23,312 bases of DNA from a virus. Lineage: Duplodnaviria > Heunggongvirae > Uroviricota > Caudoviricetes. The stretch lies in IMG/VR virus record IMGVR_UViG_2703718778_000014. One strand, written 5' to 3'. The position numbers and the translations under genes are program-made. A model generated the notes under the pieces. The model did no database searches and had not been told where the DNA came from. It saw nothing but the letters and a program-made list of their open reading frames with translations. Position 1 is the stretch's first letter. Each line of letters begins with the position of its first letter. Below are positions 3,131 to 11,271 of the stretch, piece after piece.

Positions 3131-3136
3131 GCATGT

Positions 3137-3304
3137 AAAAAGGCTCCTGCAATGAGGAGCCTGGATGTATGCCTAATCTCTGTATACTACATGGTGCCGG
3201 GTGCCTCCCGGTGAGTTCAGTATCAGCACCTGAACCCGCACAGAAAGGATAGAGTAGAAACACCTGCGCTGATATGCCCCTCCGCTCAGGGGGATTCACC
3301 ATGC
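3137..3304 (-). ncRNA. Candidate structured small RNA, repeat unit A (boundaries approximate)
   Basis: Conserved blocks shared with units B and C; variable 8-bp stem gagttcag (3213-3220) / ctgaaccc (3230-3237) fully paired only on the minus strand (G-U); minus-sense terminator hairpin 3142-3161 plus T-tract; no conserved ORF. Confidence 0.35.
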
Positions 3305-3398
3305 AGAACTTTTTTAACAACTCCCCGTCAGACAGGCAAGCATCAACCATCTGAACTGTGAGGGATTTAACATTTAACAACACAGCCTTTTCCCGCAC

Positions 3399-3563: not shown

Positions 3564-3779
3564 TGGCTCGTTTTTACAAGACTTCCATCAATCAGACAAT
3601 AGTCCATCAACCGAATTGTGAGTCATTTAACATTTCCATGAGGTAACTGATATCCAGCTAACAATCATCTGCAATGGACGAAGCCAGTTCCAGAACTTGC
3701 CCACACTACAGCAACAACCACTGCATTCCAAAAATGGAATTTTGGGAGATTACTTCTGCAAACAGCTACCGATAAATAT

Positions 3780-3916
3780 ATCCCTGATTGCCTGCGCAGT
3801 CTGTTCAAAACGCCCGGTATCCAGCTCAACGCCTATAGCACGACGCCCCAGCGCCATCGCTGCTTTAACTGCCGAACCCTACCCCATGAAGAAATCTGCA
3901 ACCAGGCCACCCGGCA
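3780..3916 (-). pseudogene. Relic copy of the 3' end of the DNA methyltransferase gene, with an in-frame stop
   Basis: Nucleotide-level match to 5316-5445 (C-terminal codons of the methyltransferase at 5290..6348); the Ser codon of the FFMGSGST motif (tcg) is TAG here (forward cta at 3879-3881); no start codon or N-terminal region present. Confidence 0.5.
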
Positions 3917-4033
3917 GAAGGGAGACTACAGCCCGCAATTCGAAAAAGGCCGCGCAGTTGCGCAGAGTGATTACTATGGGGTATTATTCGCCAGCTGAAA
4001 TATTACTTCACGTTTTATTGTTTATTCCTTGCC

Positions 4034-4245: not shown

Positions 4246-4380
4246 GAAATTTTTTTAACAAATGCCCAGTCTGACAGGCAACTGTCAACTTACTGAATTG
4301 TGAGGAATTTAACACTTCACAGCACAATATCTTTCCAGCACCCCAAAATCATCTGGACAGGAGAAAATCTTCTCCCCCAG

Positions 4381-4809
4381 TCAGAGTTTAAAATCCAGCA
4401 CGCCATTTCTAAATGCTTTATATACTCCTGAAGACGGTGGTGATGGTATATCAGCATTCTTTACTGCATTCATCGCTTCACGACATAAATCGGGATCACC
4501 GCTTTCTCTTTTAACCTGTAGCAGAAGACCATTCGGGGCCATATACATTCTCAGTGAACACTCTTTTCCTGAATACTTACCCGCATCCTTTAACTGTTCT
4601 TCTATGGCTTCCCTGACCTGAATGGCATACTGCCGGATTTCTTCACTGGCATCAGGGGTACGTTCCGATAAGCTCAAATTTTGCGACTTTATTAATTTAT
4701 CTGAGTGATGCAGCGAAGCATCATAATTATTTGTCGATACATCTTTTGTGCAGCCAGTTGTCAGACTGGCTAATATCAAAACAAGAACCGGTACAGCACG
4801 GCAATACAT
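4381..4809 (-). CDS. Putative lipoprotein (142 aa), cargo gene in the stx-equivalent slot
   Basis: ATG at 4809 with RBS GGAGATGG; N-terminal signal peptide MYCRAVPVLVLILASLTTGC with a lipobox-like LTTGC; AT-rich upstream region suggests its own promoter. Family not recognised. Confidence 0.55.
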   Translation of the reverse strand: MYCRAVPVLVLILASLTTGCTKDVSTNNYDASLHHSDKLIKSQNLSLSERTPDASEEIRQYAIQVREAIEEQLKDAGKYSGKECSLRMYMAPNGLLLQVKRESGDPDLCREAMNAVKNADIPSPPSSGVYKAFRNGVLDFKL

Positions 4810-5087
4810 TTATCCATCTCCATATTAACAAGAACAATTATCTATAAAATATAGTAAATATGCGGGATCCGGGAGGACTTGTAACTATCATCTCCGGATC
4901 AGCATGTAGTTTTTATTTTTCCGGATGATATATGCCGCAATAATACCCCTGCATACAGATGCCTGCAAATATCTACGAAGCATCCGGCGAGAATAAACAA
5001 GGAAATCTGAGACTATCTTATATGATAGCCTGTTGCTCAAAAGACAATGATTCACTCATCAGAGCTAACAACGCATGATGCAGATAA

Positions 5088-5164
5088 TGGACCGCCATCG
5101 AGGACTCGAACCCCGCGCAGCCAGCTCCGAAGGCTGGCGCTCTATCCCGATGAGCTAATGGCGG
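5088..5164 (-). tRNA. tRNA-Arg, anticodon UCG (77 nt including CCA)
   Basis: Manual cloverleaf on the minus strand: acceptor CCGCCAT/ATGGCGG, D-arm GCTC...GAGC, anticodon stem CCAGC/GCTGG with loop CUUCGGA, T-arm CGGGG-TTCGAGT-CCTCG, 3' CCA. C1-G72 pair is unusual. Confidence 0.7.
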
Positions 5165-5173
5165 TATGTGATA

Positions 5174-5249
5174 TGGTGGCCCTTGCTGGATTTGAACCAG
5201 CGACCTGGCGATTATGAGTCGCTCGCTCTCACCACTGAGCTAAAGGGCC
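5174..5249 (-). tRNA. tRNA-Ile2 type with anticodon CAU (ileX/ileZ-like; tRNA-Met not formally excluded)
   Basis: Minus strand reads GGCCCTTTAGCTCAGTGGTGAGAGCGAGCGACTCATAATCGCCAGGTCGCTGGTTCAAATCCAGCAAGGGCCACCA; canonical arms, anticodon loop CUCAUAA; close to E. coli ileX as recalled. Confidence 0.8.
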
Positions 5250-5289
5250 GGGCGCAGGATAATAACGGTACGTAACTAATCCTGCAATA

Positions 5290-6348
5290 TCATCCGTTCT
5301 GGCTGGCTAAATCCTGAACTTCCCTGACCGTCTGCTCAAAACGTTCAGTCTCCAGCTCAACGCCTGTAGCACGACGCCCCAACACCATCGCTGCTTTGAC
5401 TGTCGAACCCGACCCCATGAAGAAATCTGCAACCAGGTCACCCGGACGACTGCTCGCACTGATTATCTGCTGCAGCATTTCTGCCGGTTTTTCGCACGGA
5501 TGTTTCCCGGGATAGTACTGCACCGGTTTATGCGTCCACACATCGGTGTACGGCACCCGCACCGTCACACCGAAATACCGCCGCAGATGCTTATATTCAC
5601 TCTGCAGTTCCGTATACTGCCGGTTCAGTTCACTGTATGTGCTGACCAGTTGGTGATGTGGCTTTTCCAGTTCTCCGCGCTGATGCTTCTCTTCTGCCAC
5701 CCGGGCAAACAGCGCCTGTAATTTCAGATAATCGCTTTCGTCCGGTAACTGCCACTGGCTGGCACTGAACCAGTGCGACACCATATTTTTCTTTCCTGTG
5801 GCATCCACTATCTGTTTTGCCGTTATCCCCAGGGCAGCACGCGCATCACGAAAGTAAGAAATCAGCGGGGCCATCACATGCTGTTTCAGTGCCCTGCCCT
5901 TCGCCTCATACCCGGCATCTTTCGGGCGATACGGCCCCTGATAATGTTCCGCGAACAGAATGCGCTCTGTGGCGGGGAAATACGCCCTCAGGCTTTCCTT
6001 GTTGCACCCGTTCCAGCGTCCGGACGGCTTTGCCCAGATAATATGGTTCAGCACACTGAAGTGTTCACGCATCATGATTTCGATATCAGATGCCAGGCGA
6101 TGGCCACAGAACAGGTAAAGACTTCCGGCAGGTTTCAGCACCCGCCAGAACTGCGCAAGACACTGGTCCAGCCACTTCAGGTAATCATCGTCGCCCTTCC
6201 ACTGGTTATCCCAGCCCTCAGGCTTCACTTTAAAGTACGGCGGGTCCGTGACTATCAGATCAACAGAATTTTCGGGTAACGACCGGATAAATTCCAGGCA
6301 GTCAGCGTTGATTAACTCACAACTGGATATTTTTACAGTGTTAAGCAT
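5290..6348 (-). CDS. DNA methyltransferase, N6-adenine/N4-cytosine family (DPPY motif), 352 aa
   Basis: ATG at 6348; motif IV DPPY near the N-terminus (LIVTDPPYF) and motif I FxGxG near the C-terminus (DFFMGSGST), i.e. beta-class order; position after Q and before tRNAs as in Stx-type phages. Confidence 0.8.
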   Translation of the reverse strand: MLNTVKISSCELINADCLEFIRSLPENSVDLIVTDPPYFKVKPEGWDNQWKGDDDYLKWLDQCLAQFWRVLKPAGSLYLFCGHRLASDIEIMMREHFSVLNHIIWAKPSGRWNGCNKESLRAYFPATERILFAEHYQGPYRPKDAGYEAKGRALKQHVMAPLISYFRDARAALGITAKQIVDATGKKNMVSHWFSASQWQLPDESDYLKLQALFARVAEEKHQRGELEKPHHQLVSTYSELNRQYTELQSEYKHLRRYFGVTVRVPYTDVWTHKPVQYYPGKHPCEKPAEMLQQIISASSRPGDLVADFFMGSGSTVKAAMVLGRRATGVELETERFEQTVREVQDLASQNG

Positions 6349-6486
6349 GGATCATTAAGCCTGTCTCTGATAGGCTCATTCTGCTTTTGCGCAAAGCAGT
6401 GGGCCTGAGGTTTGCTTGTGATCCTGACGCATGAGCAGATGGCTGGTGAGTGCCCCTAACACCCACCAGCCGCCCATTTACCACAA

Positions 6487-6512
6487 ATAAAAAAGCCTTC
6501 AGGACTGAAGGC
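6487..6512 (-). terminator. Intrinsic terminator (minus strand), third of a stack
   Basis: Stem gccttcag (6495-6502) / tgaaggc (6506-6512); minus-sense transcript is followed by TTTTTTATTT. Confidence 0.4.
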
Positions 6513-6546
6513 GTCTGTAACAACCGAACTGATAGTCTGCCAGCCC

Positions 6547-6569
6547 AAAAAAAACCCGCCAGTGGCGGG
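6547..6569 (-). terminator. Intrinsic terminator (minus strand), second of a stack
   Basis: Stem cccgcc (6555-6560) / ggcggg (6564-6569) preceded on the plus strand by A8 (6547-6554), i.e. T8 after the hairpin on the minus strand. Confidence 0.45.
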
Positions 6570-6773
6570 GATCTTTTGATAAAAACGACAAAGGCACCAT
6601 TAAGGTGCCTTTTACACAGGGCAGCAGGCTTGTCATCACCTTATTGCTACTCCTGGCTTCCAGTTCGGAAGTCTCACAAGTCCCATCAGGGTACAGCGAC
6701 AGTATCAGTCAACACTCTATGATTCTGCTGAACAGGCAGTTTCGCACTGTACATTATAACCTGTTAAGCCAAC

Positions 6774-6795
6774 AAAAAACCCGCTCGGCGGCGGG
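6774..6795 (-). terminator. tR'-like intrinsic terminator downstream of the candidate late promoter
   Basis: Stem cccgc (6780-6784) / gcggg (6791-6795), loop tcggcg, followed on the minus strand by TTTTTTG (6774-6779). Confidence 0.4.
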
Positions 6796-6849: not shown

Positions 6850-6878
6850 AATATATGCTCTTCAGTTCTATTTTGCAA
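6850..6878 (-). promoter_or_regulatory. Candidate late promoter pR' just after the Q gene
   Basis: On the minus strand: -35 TTGCAA (6878-6873), 17-nt spacer, -10 TATATT (6855-6850); about 60-75 nt upstream of the tR'-like terminator, as in the lambda pR'-tR' arrangement. Confidence 0.3.
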
Positions 6879-9415: not shown

Positions 9416-10642
9416 ATGTCAGGAACCATAACAAAAATCAGCACAGGGGAAAATGTTCTGTCAGCAGCAATCCATCGCATTGAATGGTTGTTCGAAACGT
9501 TTAATGAGGTCTGCTTGTCTTTTTCTGGTGGCAAAGACTCTACTGTGCTTTTCCATCTTGTGGCAGAAGTCGCCAGTAGAAAAAAACGTCGTTTTTCGGT
9601 TTTATTCATTGACTGGGAAGCCCAATATCAGTGCACGATTAATCATATCCAAAAGATGAGGGAAATGTACCGGCATGTGACAGACAATTTTTACTGGGTA
9701 GCGCTTCCTCTGACTACGGTAAATGGCGTCTCTCAGTTTCAGCCAGAATGGATATGTTGGGAGCCAGGTGTAGAATGGGTTCGTCAGCCACCAGATGACG
9801 CTATTACAGATATGTCGTATTTCCCATTTTATCGGTATGCCATGACGTTTGAAGAATTTGTTCCGGCATTTTCTTCCTGGTTTGCCGGTAACCGATGTGG
9901 AGTGGGAATACTAACTGGTGTTCGTGCTGATGAATCGCTCAATCGCTTTATGGGACTGGTGTCTCAGCGCAAACTGAGATATGCAGATGATAAACCCTGG
10001 AGCACCGCTTCACCCGATGGTTTTTACTACACCATGTATCCATTGTATGACTGGAAAACAAATGATATATGGACGTATAACTCAAGAACCCGCGCCATCT
10101 ACAATCCCCTGTACGACCTAATGTACCGTGCCGGAGTGTCGTTACGCAACATGCGTGTTTGTGAGCCCTTTGGCCCGGAACAGCGTAAGGGGCTGTGGCT
10201 TTACCATGTTCTGGAGCCGGAAACCTGGGCCAGGATGTGTGAGCGAGTGTCAGGGGCTGCCAGTGGCGCTCTTTATGCCAATGAAAGCGGTGCCTATTTT
10301 GCTCTGCGTAAACGAATCACAAAACCGGCTCATCATACCTGGCGCAGCTACGCAATGTTCATGCTGGATGTTATGCCAGAAAGAACAGCAGAACATTACC
10401 GTAACAAAATTGCAGTCTACCTGCGCTGGTATCAGACGCGGGGCTTCCCGGATGATATCCCGGATGAACAGGAGAATGACCTGGGGAGCCGGGATATCCC
10501 GTCCTGGCGACGTATCTGTAAGACGCTCATAAAGAATGACTTCTGGTGCCGGACCCTCTCCTTCAGTCCGAACAAACCCCGGCACTATGAGCGTTATCTG
10601 CAACGAATGAAGGAAAGGAGGAAAGAATGGGGGATTCTGTGA
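9416..10642 (+). CDS. ibrA: PAPS-reductase-like PP-loop ATP pyrophosphatase (IbrA-like, DndC-like fold), 408 aa
   Basis: PP-loop motif SFSGGKDS near the N-terminus; 3' end overlaps the next gene by 16 nt. Confidence 0.65.
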   Translation: MSGTITKISTGENVLSAAIHRIEWLFETFNEVCLSFSGGKDSTVLFHLVAEVASRKKRRFSVLFIDWEAQYQCTINHIQKMREMYRHVTDNFYWVALPLTTVNGVSQFQPEWICWEPGVEWVRQPPDDAITDMSYFPFYRYAMTFEEFVPAFSSWFAGNRCGVGILTGVRADESLNRFMGLVSQRKLRYADDKPWSTASPDGFYYTMYPLYDWKTNDIWTYNSRTRAIYNPLYDLMYRAGVSLRNMRVCEPFGPEQRKGLWLYHVLEPETWARMCERVSGAASGALYANESGAYFALRKRITKPAHHTWRSYAMFMLDVMPERTAEHYRNKIAVYLRWYQTRGFPDDIPDEQENDLGSRDIPSWRRICKTLIKNDFWCRTLSFSPNKPRHYERYLQRMKERRKEWGIL

Positions 10643-11271
10643 CGCCTGAGATGGATGTACTAAGCAACATGATTCGTCAGTACTTCAGTCGGGAACAGCC
10701 CGAAGAAGAGTCCATACGAGCCCTTAACCATCTGCGCAGGGTACTGCATGAAGTCAGTCCTTTTGCACAGGAGCCTGTAGACTGTGTGCTGTGGGTGAAA
10801 GCGGATGAGGTGGTAGCCAACGATTATAACCCCAATGTCATGGCACCAAGTGAGAAGAAACTGCTGAAGCAGTCACTGGAAAAAGATGGTTTCACACAAC
10901 CGGTGGTGGTGTCAGAGGAGAAGAATCATTATCTGGTGGTGGATGGTTTTCATCGTCAGTTATTGGGCAGAGAATCAGTTACAGGAAAACGTCTGAGGGG
11001 CTGGCTGCCTGTAGCCTGTATTAATCCAGAGAGAAAAGGGCAAGCCGCACGCATTGCCGCAACCATTCGACATAACCGGGCTAGGGGGAAACACCAGATA
11101 GACTCAGTGTCTGATATTGTAAGAGATCTTTCACGCTTGGGATGGGCAGATGAACGCATTGGCACTGAGTTGGGTATGGATCAGGATGAAGTACTGAGAC
11201 TTAAACAAATTAGCGGGCTAACTGAGTTATTTCAGGAAGTGGATTTCAGCCCGGCATGGACAGTTAAATAG
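10627..11271 (+). CDS. ibrB: ParB N-terminal-domain (ParB/sulfiredoxin-like nuclease) protein (IbrB-like), 214 aa
   Basis: Strong RBS AAGGAGG; ParB-box-like HYLVVDGFHR and basic TIRHNRARG block; translationally coupled to the upstream gene. Confidence 0.65.
   Translation: MGDSVTPEMDVLSNMIRQYFSREQPEEESIRALNHLRRVLHEVSPFAQEPVDCVLWVKADEVVANDYNPNVMAPSEKKLLKQSLEKDGFTQPVVVSEEKNHYLVVDGFHRQLLGRESVTGKRLRGWLPVACINPERKGQAARIAATIRHNRARGKHQIDSVSDIVRDLSRLGWADERIGTELGMDQDEVLRLKQISGLTELFQEVDFSPAWTVK

Follow-up and report, generated by a model that had tools for sequence, protein, structure and literature searches.

The two adjacent tRNA genes on the minus strand of the DNA analysed here (a stretch of 23,312 nucleotides, referred to as the window) are ileZ and argN, two of the three members of the ileZ-argN-argO cassette found in Stx-type lambdoid phages, a cassette that would probably raise the decoding of rare codons. 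The pair is already known, as it is annotated in the record of phage 933W and, automatically, in RefSeq. Because ileZ and argN have long been known in Shiga-toxin-type lambdoid prophages, the finding is an ordinary one; the only local peculiarity of this copy is a rare A37G allele of argN. An ileX-like tRNA was reportedly found beside stx2 in 1997, and the three-gene cassette is said to have been described with the 933W genome in 1999. A later paper cites the 1997 report on the ileX-like gene near stx2.

Several complete E. coli chromosomes, such as that of strain S19-651, show 100% identity to the window over positions 4300-6400; in S19-651, an ompW-adjacent prophage matches the whole window save for three substitutions and a 271-bp indel. 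According to the PGAP annotation, the portal gene of the S19-651 copy is split by IS600 and three further genes are pseudogenes, so this copy is probably defective and selection on phage functions may be relaxed. The stx genes were not found in the window, and a gene for a TolA-domain lipoprotein occupies their slot. The prophage that carries the pair is thus stx-negative and probably defective, a lambdoid prophage of E. coli that is integrated beside ompW.

Gene order and identity of the two tRNAs

Read along the minus strand, Q comes first, followed by a pR'-like promoter with several terminators, the methyltransferase gene, the two tRNAs, a 142-aa ORF, three copies of the STnc100 sRNA, nanS-p and the lysis genes. 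Q was identified by Pfam Phage_antiter_Q (295 bits), and the tRNA genes start 41 nt past the methyltransferase stop codon. The features of the region are the following.

6850..6878, minus strand: pR'-like late promoter, located where the Q gene ends (consensus scan)
6780-6795, 6590-6612, 6555-6569 and 6495-6512, minus strand: terminator-like hairpins after the pR'-like promoter (consensus scan)
5290..6348, minus strand: DNA methyltransferase of 352 aa, immediately upstream of the tRNA region (Pfam N6_N4_Mtase, 146.9 bits; PGAP annotation)
5259..5287, minus strand: putative tRNA promoter pT, TTGCAG - 17 nt - TATTAT, followed by CCTGCGCCC, a G+C-rich stretch that extends to tRNA position +1 (the 29-mer is that of 933W pT)
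5174..5249, minus strand: ileZ, tRNA-Ile2 type, anticodon CAU, which would read AUA after lysidine modification of C34 (ARAGORN; Rfam, 72.5 bits; PGAP tRNA-Ile)
5165..5173, minus strand: 9-nt spacer TATCACATA from ileZ to argN (identical to 933W; relatives have 7-nt or 9-nt versions)
5088..5164, minus strand: argN-type tRNA-Arg, anticodon UCG, with C1-G72, U73, A20 and the rare G37 at base 5127 (ARAGORN; Rfam, 53.2 bits; PGAP tRNA-Arg)
5075..5087, minus strand: 13-nt spacer TTATCTGCATCAT from argN to the argO stub (differs from 933W at 5077 only; more frequent among the listed relatives than any other spacer variant)
5062..5074, minus strand: argO stub, the first 13 nt (GCGTTGTTAGCTC) of a tRNA-Arg(UCU) gene (alignments with Stx2a_1447 and 933W; 933W homology ends here)
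5033..5048, minus strand: what may be a degenerate remnant of the argO anticodon arm, with ATTGTCTTTTGAGCAA aligned to ATTGCCTTCTAAGCAA (13/16 identical; weak evidence)
4381..4809, minus strand: 142-aa lipoprotein with a TolA C-terminal domain, the cargo in the stxAB slot of Stx phages (Pfam PF06519, 78.9 bits)

The original prediction placed two adjacent minus-strand tRNAs after the methyltransferase gene, and both ARAGORN and the Rfam tRNA model recover them at the same coordinates. ARAGORN, which had been proposed as a check, calls exactly two tRNA genes in the 23.3-kb window: Arg(tcg) at 5088-5164(-) and 'Met'(cat) at 5174-5249(-), thus with the anticodons UCG and CAU. Against a gathering score of 29, and with E-values that apply to the whole window, the Rfam model gives 53.2 bits for the Arg gene (E 4.9e-9) and 72.5 bits for the CAU gene (E 2.3e-14). 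In a RefSeq genome that is 100% identical here, PGAP, which relies on tRNAscan-SE, annotates a tRNA-Arg and a tRNA-Ile without a pseudogene flag.

The CAU gene is 76/76 identical to the ileZ of both 933W and Stx2a_1447. It had been described as tRNA-Ile2-like, which is borne out by an identity of 68/76 to K-12 ileX as against 54/77 to metT/metU. In E. coli, TilS and IleRS recognise C4-G69, C5-G68, U12-A23, C29-G41, A37, A38 and A73, and each of these elements can be read in the ileZ sequence; the anticodon loop CUCAUAA, C4-G69, C5-G68 and A73 are common to ileZ and the chromosomal ileX and ileY. Eight substitutions separate ileZ from ileX, among them a compensatory change at pair 6-67 (U6-A67 in ileZ, C6-G67 in ileX) and the combination A27/C43 where ileX has G27-U43. 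Unlike ileX and ileY, ileZ is phage-borne with its own putative promoter. Host TilS would turn C34 of ileZ into lysidine, after which IleRS would charge the tRNA and AUA would be read.

The same gene could be taken for an additional tRNA-Met, of the elongator or the initiator kind, since the anticodon leads ARAGORN to call it tRNA-Met and several phage records list the homologue under that name. We consider this highly improbable: the gene is 89% identical to ileX and only 70% to metT/metU, it has the C4-G69 and C5-G68 pairs for TilS together with the IleRS elements, and both PGAP and the authors of the 933W record name it tRNA-Ile. It is not an initiator tRNA, because it has a G1-C72 pair.

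For the Arg tRNA, the predicted anticodon UCG and C1-G72 pair were confirmed by reading the sequence and by ARAGORN. The acceptor stem is made of seven Watson-Crick pairs (C1-G72, C2-G71, G3-C70, C4-G69, C5-G68, A6-U67 and U7-A66), and all pairs of the tRNA are standard in the Rfam alignment, with a single G-U pair in the T stem. The anticodon loop is CUUCGGA, the discriminator is U73, CCA is encoded, and the D loop AUCGGGAUA puts an A at position 20. The gene is 75/77 identical to argN of 933W and 73/77 to argN of Stx2a_1447. A C1-G72 pair is indeed unusual: among 13 distinct K-12 tRNA sequences sampled, only proM starts in this way, and to our knowledge the pair is otherwise confined to tRNA-Pro in E. 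coli. In the argN family it is a fixed feature, with C1, G72 and U73 invariant in 116 copies among the IMG/VR matches listed. The U73 discriminator was not mentioned in the original prediction.

Compared to the host Arg tRNAs, argN is divergent, with at most 55/77 positions (71%) identical to any of those compared. The hosts' G1-C72 is replaced by C1-G72, and their purine discriminator (A73 in argQ/V and argW; G73 in argX and argU, and likewise in phage argO) has no counterpart in the U73 of argN, which holds for the whole argN family. What argN has in common with host argX and argQ is A20, C35 and G36. The loop of argX (CCG), CUCCGGA, differs from the CUUCGGA of the window argN at position 34 only, and in the argQ/V/Y/Z type (ACG, read as ICG) the argQ loop CUACGAA differs only at position 34 from the common A37 argN loop CUUCGAA. 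The U34 anticodon of argN is absent from the four K-12 Arg isoacceptor types compared (ACG, CCG, UCU and CCU), and we know of no K-12 Arg tRNA beyond these types. The identity set of E. coli ArgRS is A20, C35 and G36 or U36, and argN has A20 and the anticodon UCG. ArgRS would be expected to charge argN through A20, C35 and G36 despite U73; the efficiency of charging is uncertain, because neither U73 nor C1-G72 is found in any of the four host Arg isoacceptor types.

To see whether argN stems from a chromosomal tRNA of some other species, its anticodon-arm pattern was run against 185,579 species-representative genomes; this gave 64 matches and identified no source for the gene. As the pattern is a near-palindrome, 63 of these matches were not tRNAs, and the last proved to be a copy of argN itself, carried by a MAG contig of 2.9 kb.

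The cassette in 933W and its relatives

The earlier statement that 933W carries ileZ-argN-argO at the homologous place is correct: GenBank AF125520 gives the order pT, ileZ (AUA), argN ("CGH; CGG?"), argO ("AGA; AGG?"), terminator and stxA2. From 5287, in the pT -35 hexamer, to 5062, only three bases differ from 933W, namely 5144 (argN position 20a, U here and C in 933W), 5127 (argN position 37, G here and A in 933W) and 5077. The placement between the Q/pR'/tR' region and the cargo slot is the same as in 933W, VT2-Sakai/Sp5 and other Stx phages. There are also differences from 933W: argO breaks off after nt 13 and lacks the terminator that follows it there, a TolA-domain lipoprotein has taken the place of stxAB as cargo, and the methyltransferase gene upstream of pT is complete, while 933W has retained only its 3' end. 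Set against the complete ileZ-argN-argO cassette, the pT sequence is present here, while an intact argO, the terminator and stxAB are absent; a consensus scan of the minus strand from 5088 to 4810 yielded no terminator-like site. In the phages SfI, Sf6, ST64T and 21, tRNA-Asn/tRNA-Thr genes lie between Q and the lysis genes and have been proposed to decode phage-preferred codons (PMC3636060); their niche and proposed role are the same as those of the pair studied here, but the tRNA species are different and the sequences are unrelated.

The cassette is widespread. An argN-like gene is found in 854 of 5426 complete E. coli genomes, or about one in six, and in 270 deposited phage records, and a pattern scan of IMG/VR returned at least 120 contigs. 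Among the IMG/VR matches listed, 82 have all three tRNAs and 31 have ileZ and argN only. The cassette is not a marker of Stx phages, because stx follows it in only 21 of the 99 listed loci with enough downstream sequence. Among the listed matches, nucleotide diversity (pi) is 0.002 for ileZ, 0.047 for argN and 0.026 for argO, compared to 0.31-0.47 for the mosaic flanks, and the cassette is a low-diversity island between them. Stem polymorphisms in the 116 listed argN copies keep pairing (C/U at 5 opposite G69, C/U at 64 opposite G52), a broken pair is seen in only seven of them, and 11 of the listed argO copies have a C-G to G-C double change, which points to constraint on the tRNA structure and to a functional family.

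The putative promoter is also preserved, as the pT 29-mer matches at 29/29 positions the 933W feature annotated as 'pT; putative tRNA promoter' (GenBank AF125520). Among the IMG/VR matches listed, the TTG and TATTAT hexamers occur at the same spacing across four otherwise different upstream sequences. In a simple consensus scan, the putative pT scores under the threshold. For a Stx2a prophage, a primary transcription start has been mapped upstream of the tRNAs and appears to drive them (PMC7547250). We infer that the tRNAs are likely transcribed from their own promoter pT, and would therefore be available in the lysogen. After induction they may also be made by Q-dependent read-through from pR'. 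Maturation of both tRNAs, in which CCA is encoded, would fall to host RNase P and 3' trimming.

Codon usage, position 37 and the proposed role of the tRNAs

Codon usage was compared between 41 intact PGAP genes of the sister prophage and 42 K-12 genes, with the following frequencies per 1000 codons.

AUA: late genes 7.5, early genes 8.5, K-12 sample 2.4
CGA: late genes 5.5, early genes 7.3, K-12 sample 2.6
CGG: late genes 14.7, early genes 12.5, K-12 sample 3.5
AGA: late genes 5.8, early genes 9.2, K-12 sample 1.2
AGG: late genes 5.8, early genes 8.7, K-12 sample 0.7

When over-use is expressed within each amino-acid family relative to the K-12 genes, the top four codons are AGG (8.1x), AGA (4.6x), AUA (4.0x) and CGG (2.9x), with GGA fifth and CGA ninth (1.7x). 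The G+C content is nearly equal, at 51.8% for the prophage and 52.9% for the K-12 genes. The top four codons are a clean match to the three-tRNA cassette, and the match extends to the occasional fourth tRNA, tRNA-Gly(UCC). It had been predicted that the tRNAs supply rare codons, with enrichment to be sought in late genes such as nanS-p and the lipoprotein gene. The counts fit the idea of rare-codon supply, in that AUA, CGG, AGA and AGG lead the list of codons over-used by the prophage. Enrichment is, however, equally strong in the early genes, and the codon bias is prophage-wide rather than specific to late genes. Of the two genes singled out, nanS-p is only mildly enriched (2 AUA, 4 CGA and 5 CGG in 662 codons), and the cargo lipoprotein gene, with 4 AUA in 142 codons, is rich in that codon but lacks CGA.

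We see in this agreement between anticodons and over-used codons an unusually clean support for the idea of codon supply. K-12, without a tRNA of anticodon UCG, would read CGA through its I34 tRNA and CGG only through the minor CCG tRNA; argN would read both CGA and CGG. The cassette as a whole would thereby raise the decoding capacity for codons that lambdoid genes over-use. For the alleles present in the window, this function is deduced from their sequence.

The G37 allele that sets this copy apart is rare, being found in 5 of the 116 argN copies among the IMG/VR matches listed. The exact argN sequence of the window occurs in 13 of 857 E. coli records and in none of the deposited phages. Because of G37, the anticodon loop of argN resembles that of host argX. 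The change also creates a G36-G37 motif, the type that TrmD methylates. A thermodynamic prediction for unmodified RNA gives a C32-G37 pair around UUCG a probability of 0.48 and a gain of 0.8 kcal/mol. That G37 inactivates the tRNA by trapping its anticodon loop as a c(UUCG)g tetraloop was considered and rejected: the gain is small, and the functional host argX has the same C32 and G37, so the pairing potential is not read as inactivation. In argO, A37G has arisen independently and is seen in 14 of 85 copies, including 933W, and the two changes never occur together in one locus among the IMG/VR matches listed. Rather than being neutral, these independent changes in argN and argO might conceivably be under selection, either because they make the tRNA depend on TrmD or because they let it escape an anticodon nuclease.

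A rival reading would make the phage Arg tRNAs a means of counter-defence, in which nuclease-insensitive stand-ins replace host tRNA-Arg cleaved by anticodon nucleases such as colicin D-type toxins or tRNA-targeting defences, and the odd acceptor end and the variation at position 37 reflect an arms race. Substitute tRNAs are known to defeat tRNA-cleaving defences in T5-like phages. The identity of only 71% between argN and any host Arg tRNA compared, its distinct acceptor end, and the independent recurrence of A37G (5/116 in argN and 14/85 in argO among the matches listed, never both in one locus) are consistent with such a role. We nevertheless judge it very unlikely. No feature of the window connects the tRNAs with a nuclease, the anticodon loops are ordinary and like those of host argX and argQ, the position-37 polymorphisms are rare, and a tRNA-Ile has no obvious nuclease rationale, whereas the match to codon usage is both specific and strong.

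Truncation of argO and replacement of the cargo

The third tRNA had been flagged as missing, and as a gene it is: the first 13 nt of argO alone remain. Rfam found no third tRNA in 4800-5320 at E<=10, and ARAGORN found none in the window. A methyltransferase relic at ~3770-3920 was also checked for a second set of tRNAs; its homology ends at the promoter region, with no tRNA after it. Since homology ends 13 nt into argO, the 'missing third tRNA' is a truncated stub. BLAST searches against Stx2a_1447 and against a locus of a second truncated class (class B, described below) returned nothing past the 26 nt of spacer and stub. The possible trace of the argO anticodon arm further on is in register within 1 nt, with a shuffle p of 0.02-0.04, which is marginal. 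Folding of the remnant gave z = -0.1, and MFE z-scores are uninformative for tRNAs. The remnant was also considered as a diverged full tRNA with intact relatives elsewhere; this was rejected, as distant blastn searches of the 5426 E. coli genomes returned only full-length copies of the same module.

The tRNA lost here, argO, is the decoder of the two most over-used codons, AGA and AGG. As these codons are the most over-used and argO is nonetheless lost, codon supply is not strictly required here, and it appears that argO can be lost without a shift in codon usage. We infer that the AGA/AGG decoder may have been lost as a by-product of cargo exchange. The lipoprotein that now follows the stub has the lipobox LTTGC, and its match to structures of TolA domain III from E. 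coli has an E-value of 7e-25.

The loss of argO raises the question of whether the other two genes are themselves decaying relics in a defective prophage, unexpressed or useless, with A37G and the argO truncation as steps of decay. The reduction of argO to 13 nt would fit this, as would the rarity of the G37 allele and the state of the sister prophage with its IS600-split portal gene and three further pseudogenes. Decay of this kind is also seen elsewhere: in a related ompW prophage an argN-derived gene is degraded and called 'tRNA-Lys(UUU)', and in stx2i prophages one cassette tRNA is annotated as a pseudogene (PMC13641118). However, ileZ and argN form perfect cloverleaves with encoded CCA behind an unchanged promoter sequence, ileZ is identical to the copy in inducible phages, and the combination of C32 and G37 is found likewise in the loop of host argX. 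In addition, the stub junction is present in 123 complete E. coli genomes, where the module of stub and lipoprotein is kept at 92-100% identity, so the arrangement is stable and not a one-off decay. Overall, we consider decay of the pair unlikely.

Truncated argO occurs in two independent forms, namely the 13-nt stub, with a faint trace to about position 45, and a clean cut after position 43. Among the IMG/VR matches listed, the stub type of the window, one of two main classes of two-tRNA loci, is represented by 16 loci, and a TolA-domain lipoprotein follows in all 14 of those with enough downstream sequence. In the 13 listed loci of class B, the other main class, argO is preserved as far as position 43, where it gives way to unrelated sequence with an STnc100 copy and nanS-p further on. 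Truncation in class B by a simple deletion of stx is unsupported, because the sequence that follows the cut does not occur in the 6.2-kb stx region of Stx2a_1447. In one further listed locus, the third slot is taken by a degenerate glyT-like tRNA, before a lipoprotein gene of 69% identity. No deposited phage covers 80% or more of the region that runs from the tRNAs over the stub to the lipoprotein gene.

It is conceivable, though we regard it as quite doubtful, that argO is a recurrent breakpoint for the exchange of the cargo ('moron') slot in lambdoid late regions. If it is true that the tRNA gene directs such exchanges, for example through its anticodon arm as a site of recombination, then the cassette would act as a joint for cargo swapping as well as a translation aid. 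The junction between the tRNAs and the cargo is a mosaic boundary, and it could help to type stx-negative relatives of Stx phages.

Variation in the third tRNA slot of related prophages

A second type of argO truncation is found at positions 5431-5480 of the IMG/VR relative L075 and at 12 similar loci. Here argO is complete through position 43, on the 3' side of its anticodon stem; the DNA fused to it there is unrelated and runs on to a copy of STnc100 and to nanS-p. This cut is independent of the truncation that produced the argO stub in the window. These loci carry neither stx nor the lipoprotein gene. In another IMG/VR relative, L115, the third slot downstream of argN holds a degenerate glyT-like tRNA-Gly(UCC) sequence, for which ARAGORN made no call, followed by a TolA-domain lipoprotein gene that is 69% identical. 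One further locus combines ileZ-argN-argO with an intact tRNA-Gly(UCC), and GGA ranks fifth among the codons over-used by the prophage.

Another ompW-integrated prophage, PPompW_699 (LC567826.1), carries a derivative in the argN slot.

L195 2501-2576: gene called as tRNA-Lys(UUU), 76.6% identical

On one side of this gene is ileZ, which is intact, and on the other a copy of argO with a length of 75 nt in the ARAGORN call; an ISEc20 insertion lies downstream of the cassette. The gene appears to be an argN that has decayed or been re-assigned.

Position 37 also varies in argO. The 933W copy (L194 1987-2063) has G37, not A37, and the same replacement is seen among the IMG/VR relatives (14 of 85 argO copies). 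The G37 alleles of argO and argN never occur together. Being next to U36, G37 in argO would preclude the t6A37 modification that is expected on host argU.

The Q-methyltransferase interval and an early-region gene pair

The window lacks 271 bp at 6546/6547 that are present in the S19-651 sister prophage (L002 20248-20517). This indel falls between Q and the methyltransferase gene, in a region with four terminator-like hairpins; the two prophages are otherwise 99.98-100% identical.

6495-6512 (-): terminator-like hairpin
6555-6569 (-): terminator-like hairpin
6590-6612 (-): terminator-like hairpin
6780-6795 (-): terminator-like hairpin

The early region includes a divergently oriented gene pair, named by PGAP.

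9416-10642 (+): phosphoadenosine-phosphosulfate-reductase-family gene
10627-11271 (+): IbrB-like (ParB-type) gene

sRNA copies, a methyltransferase relic and the lipoprotein cargo

Between nanS-p and the lipoprotein gene, the prophage sRNA STnc100 (Rfam RF02076) occurs in three copies arranged in tandem. A 2026 preprint (10.64898/2026.05.13.724894) relates STnc100 to PasD sRNAs.

3131-3332 (-): STnc100, 164 bits
3397-3592 (-): STnc100, 121 bits
4062-4274 (-): STnc100, 172 bits
about 3770-3920 (-): relic of the 3' end of a second methyltransferase, PGAP pseudogene
4381-4809 (-): 142-aa lipoprotein gene

The relic shares roughly 85-90% identity with window positions 5300-5450. Its homology stops at about the point where pT, the putative tRNA promoter, would be expected to start, and no tRNAs follow it. 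We suggest that several late-region modules have left stacked remnants here.

The lipoprotein gene occupies the position of stxAB in Stx phages. Its product has a signal peptide with the lipobox LTTGC and a Pfam TolA match of 78.9 bits, with residues 55-141 matching TolA domain III of E. coli; PGAP names it TolA, and in PHROG 5772, to which it belongs, it is listed under 'unknown function'. Structures have been solved of TolA domain III bound to g3p of filamentous phages and to colicin A (PDB 1tol, 3qdr). The lipoprotein could plausibly act as a periplasmic TolA-III decoy that excludes colicins or filamentous phages.
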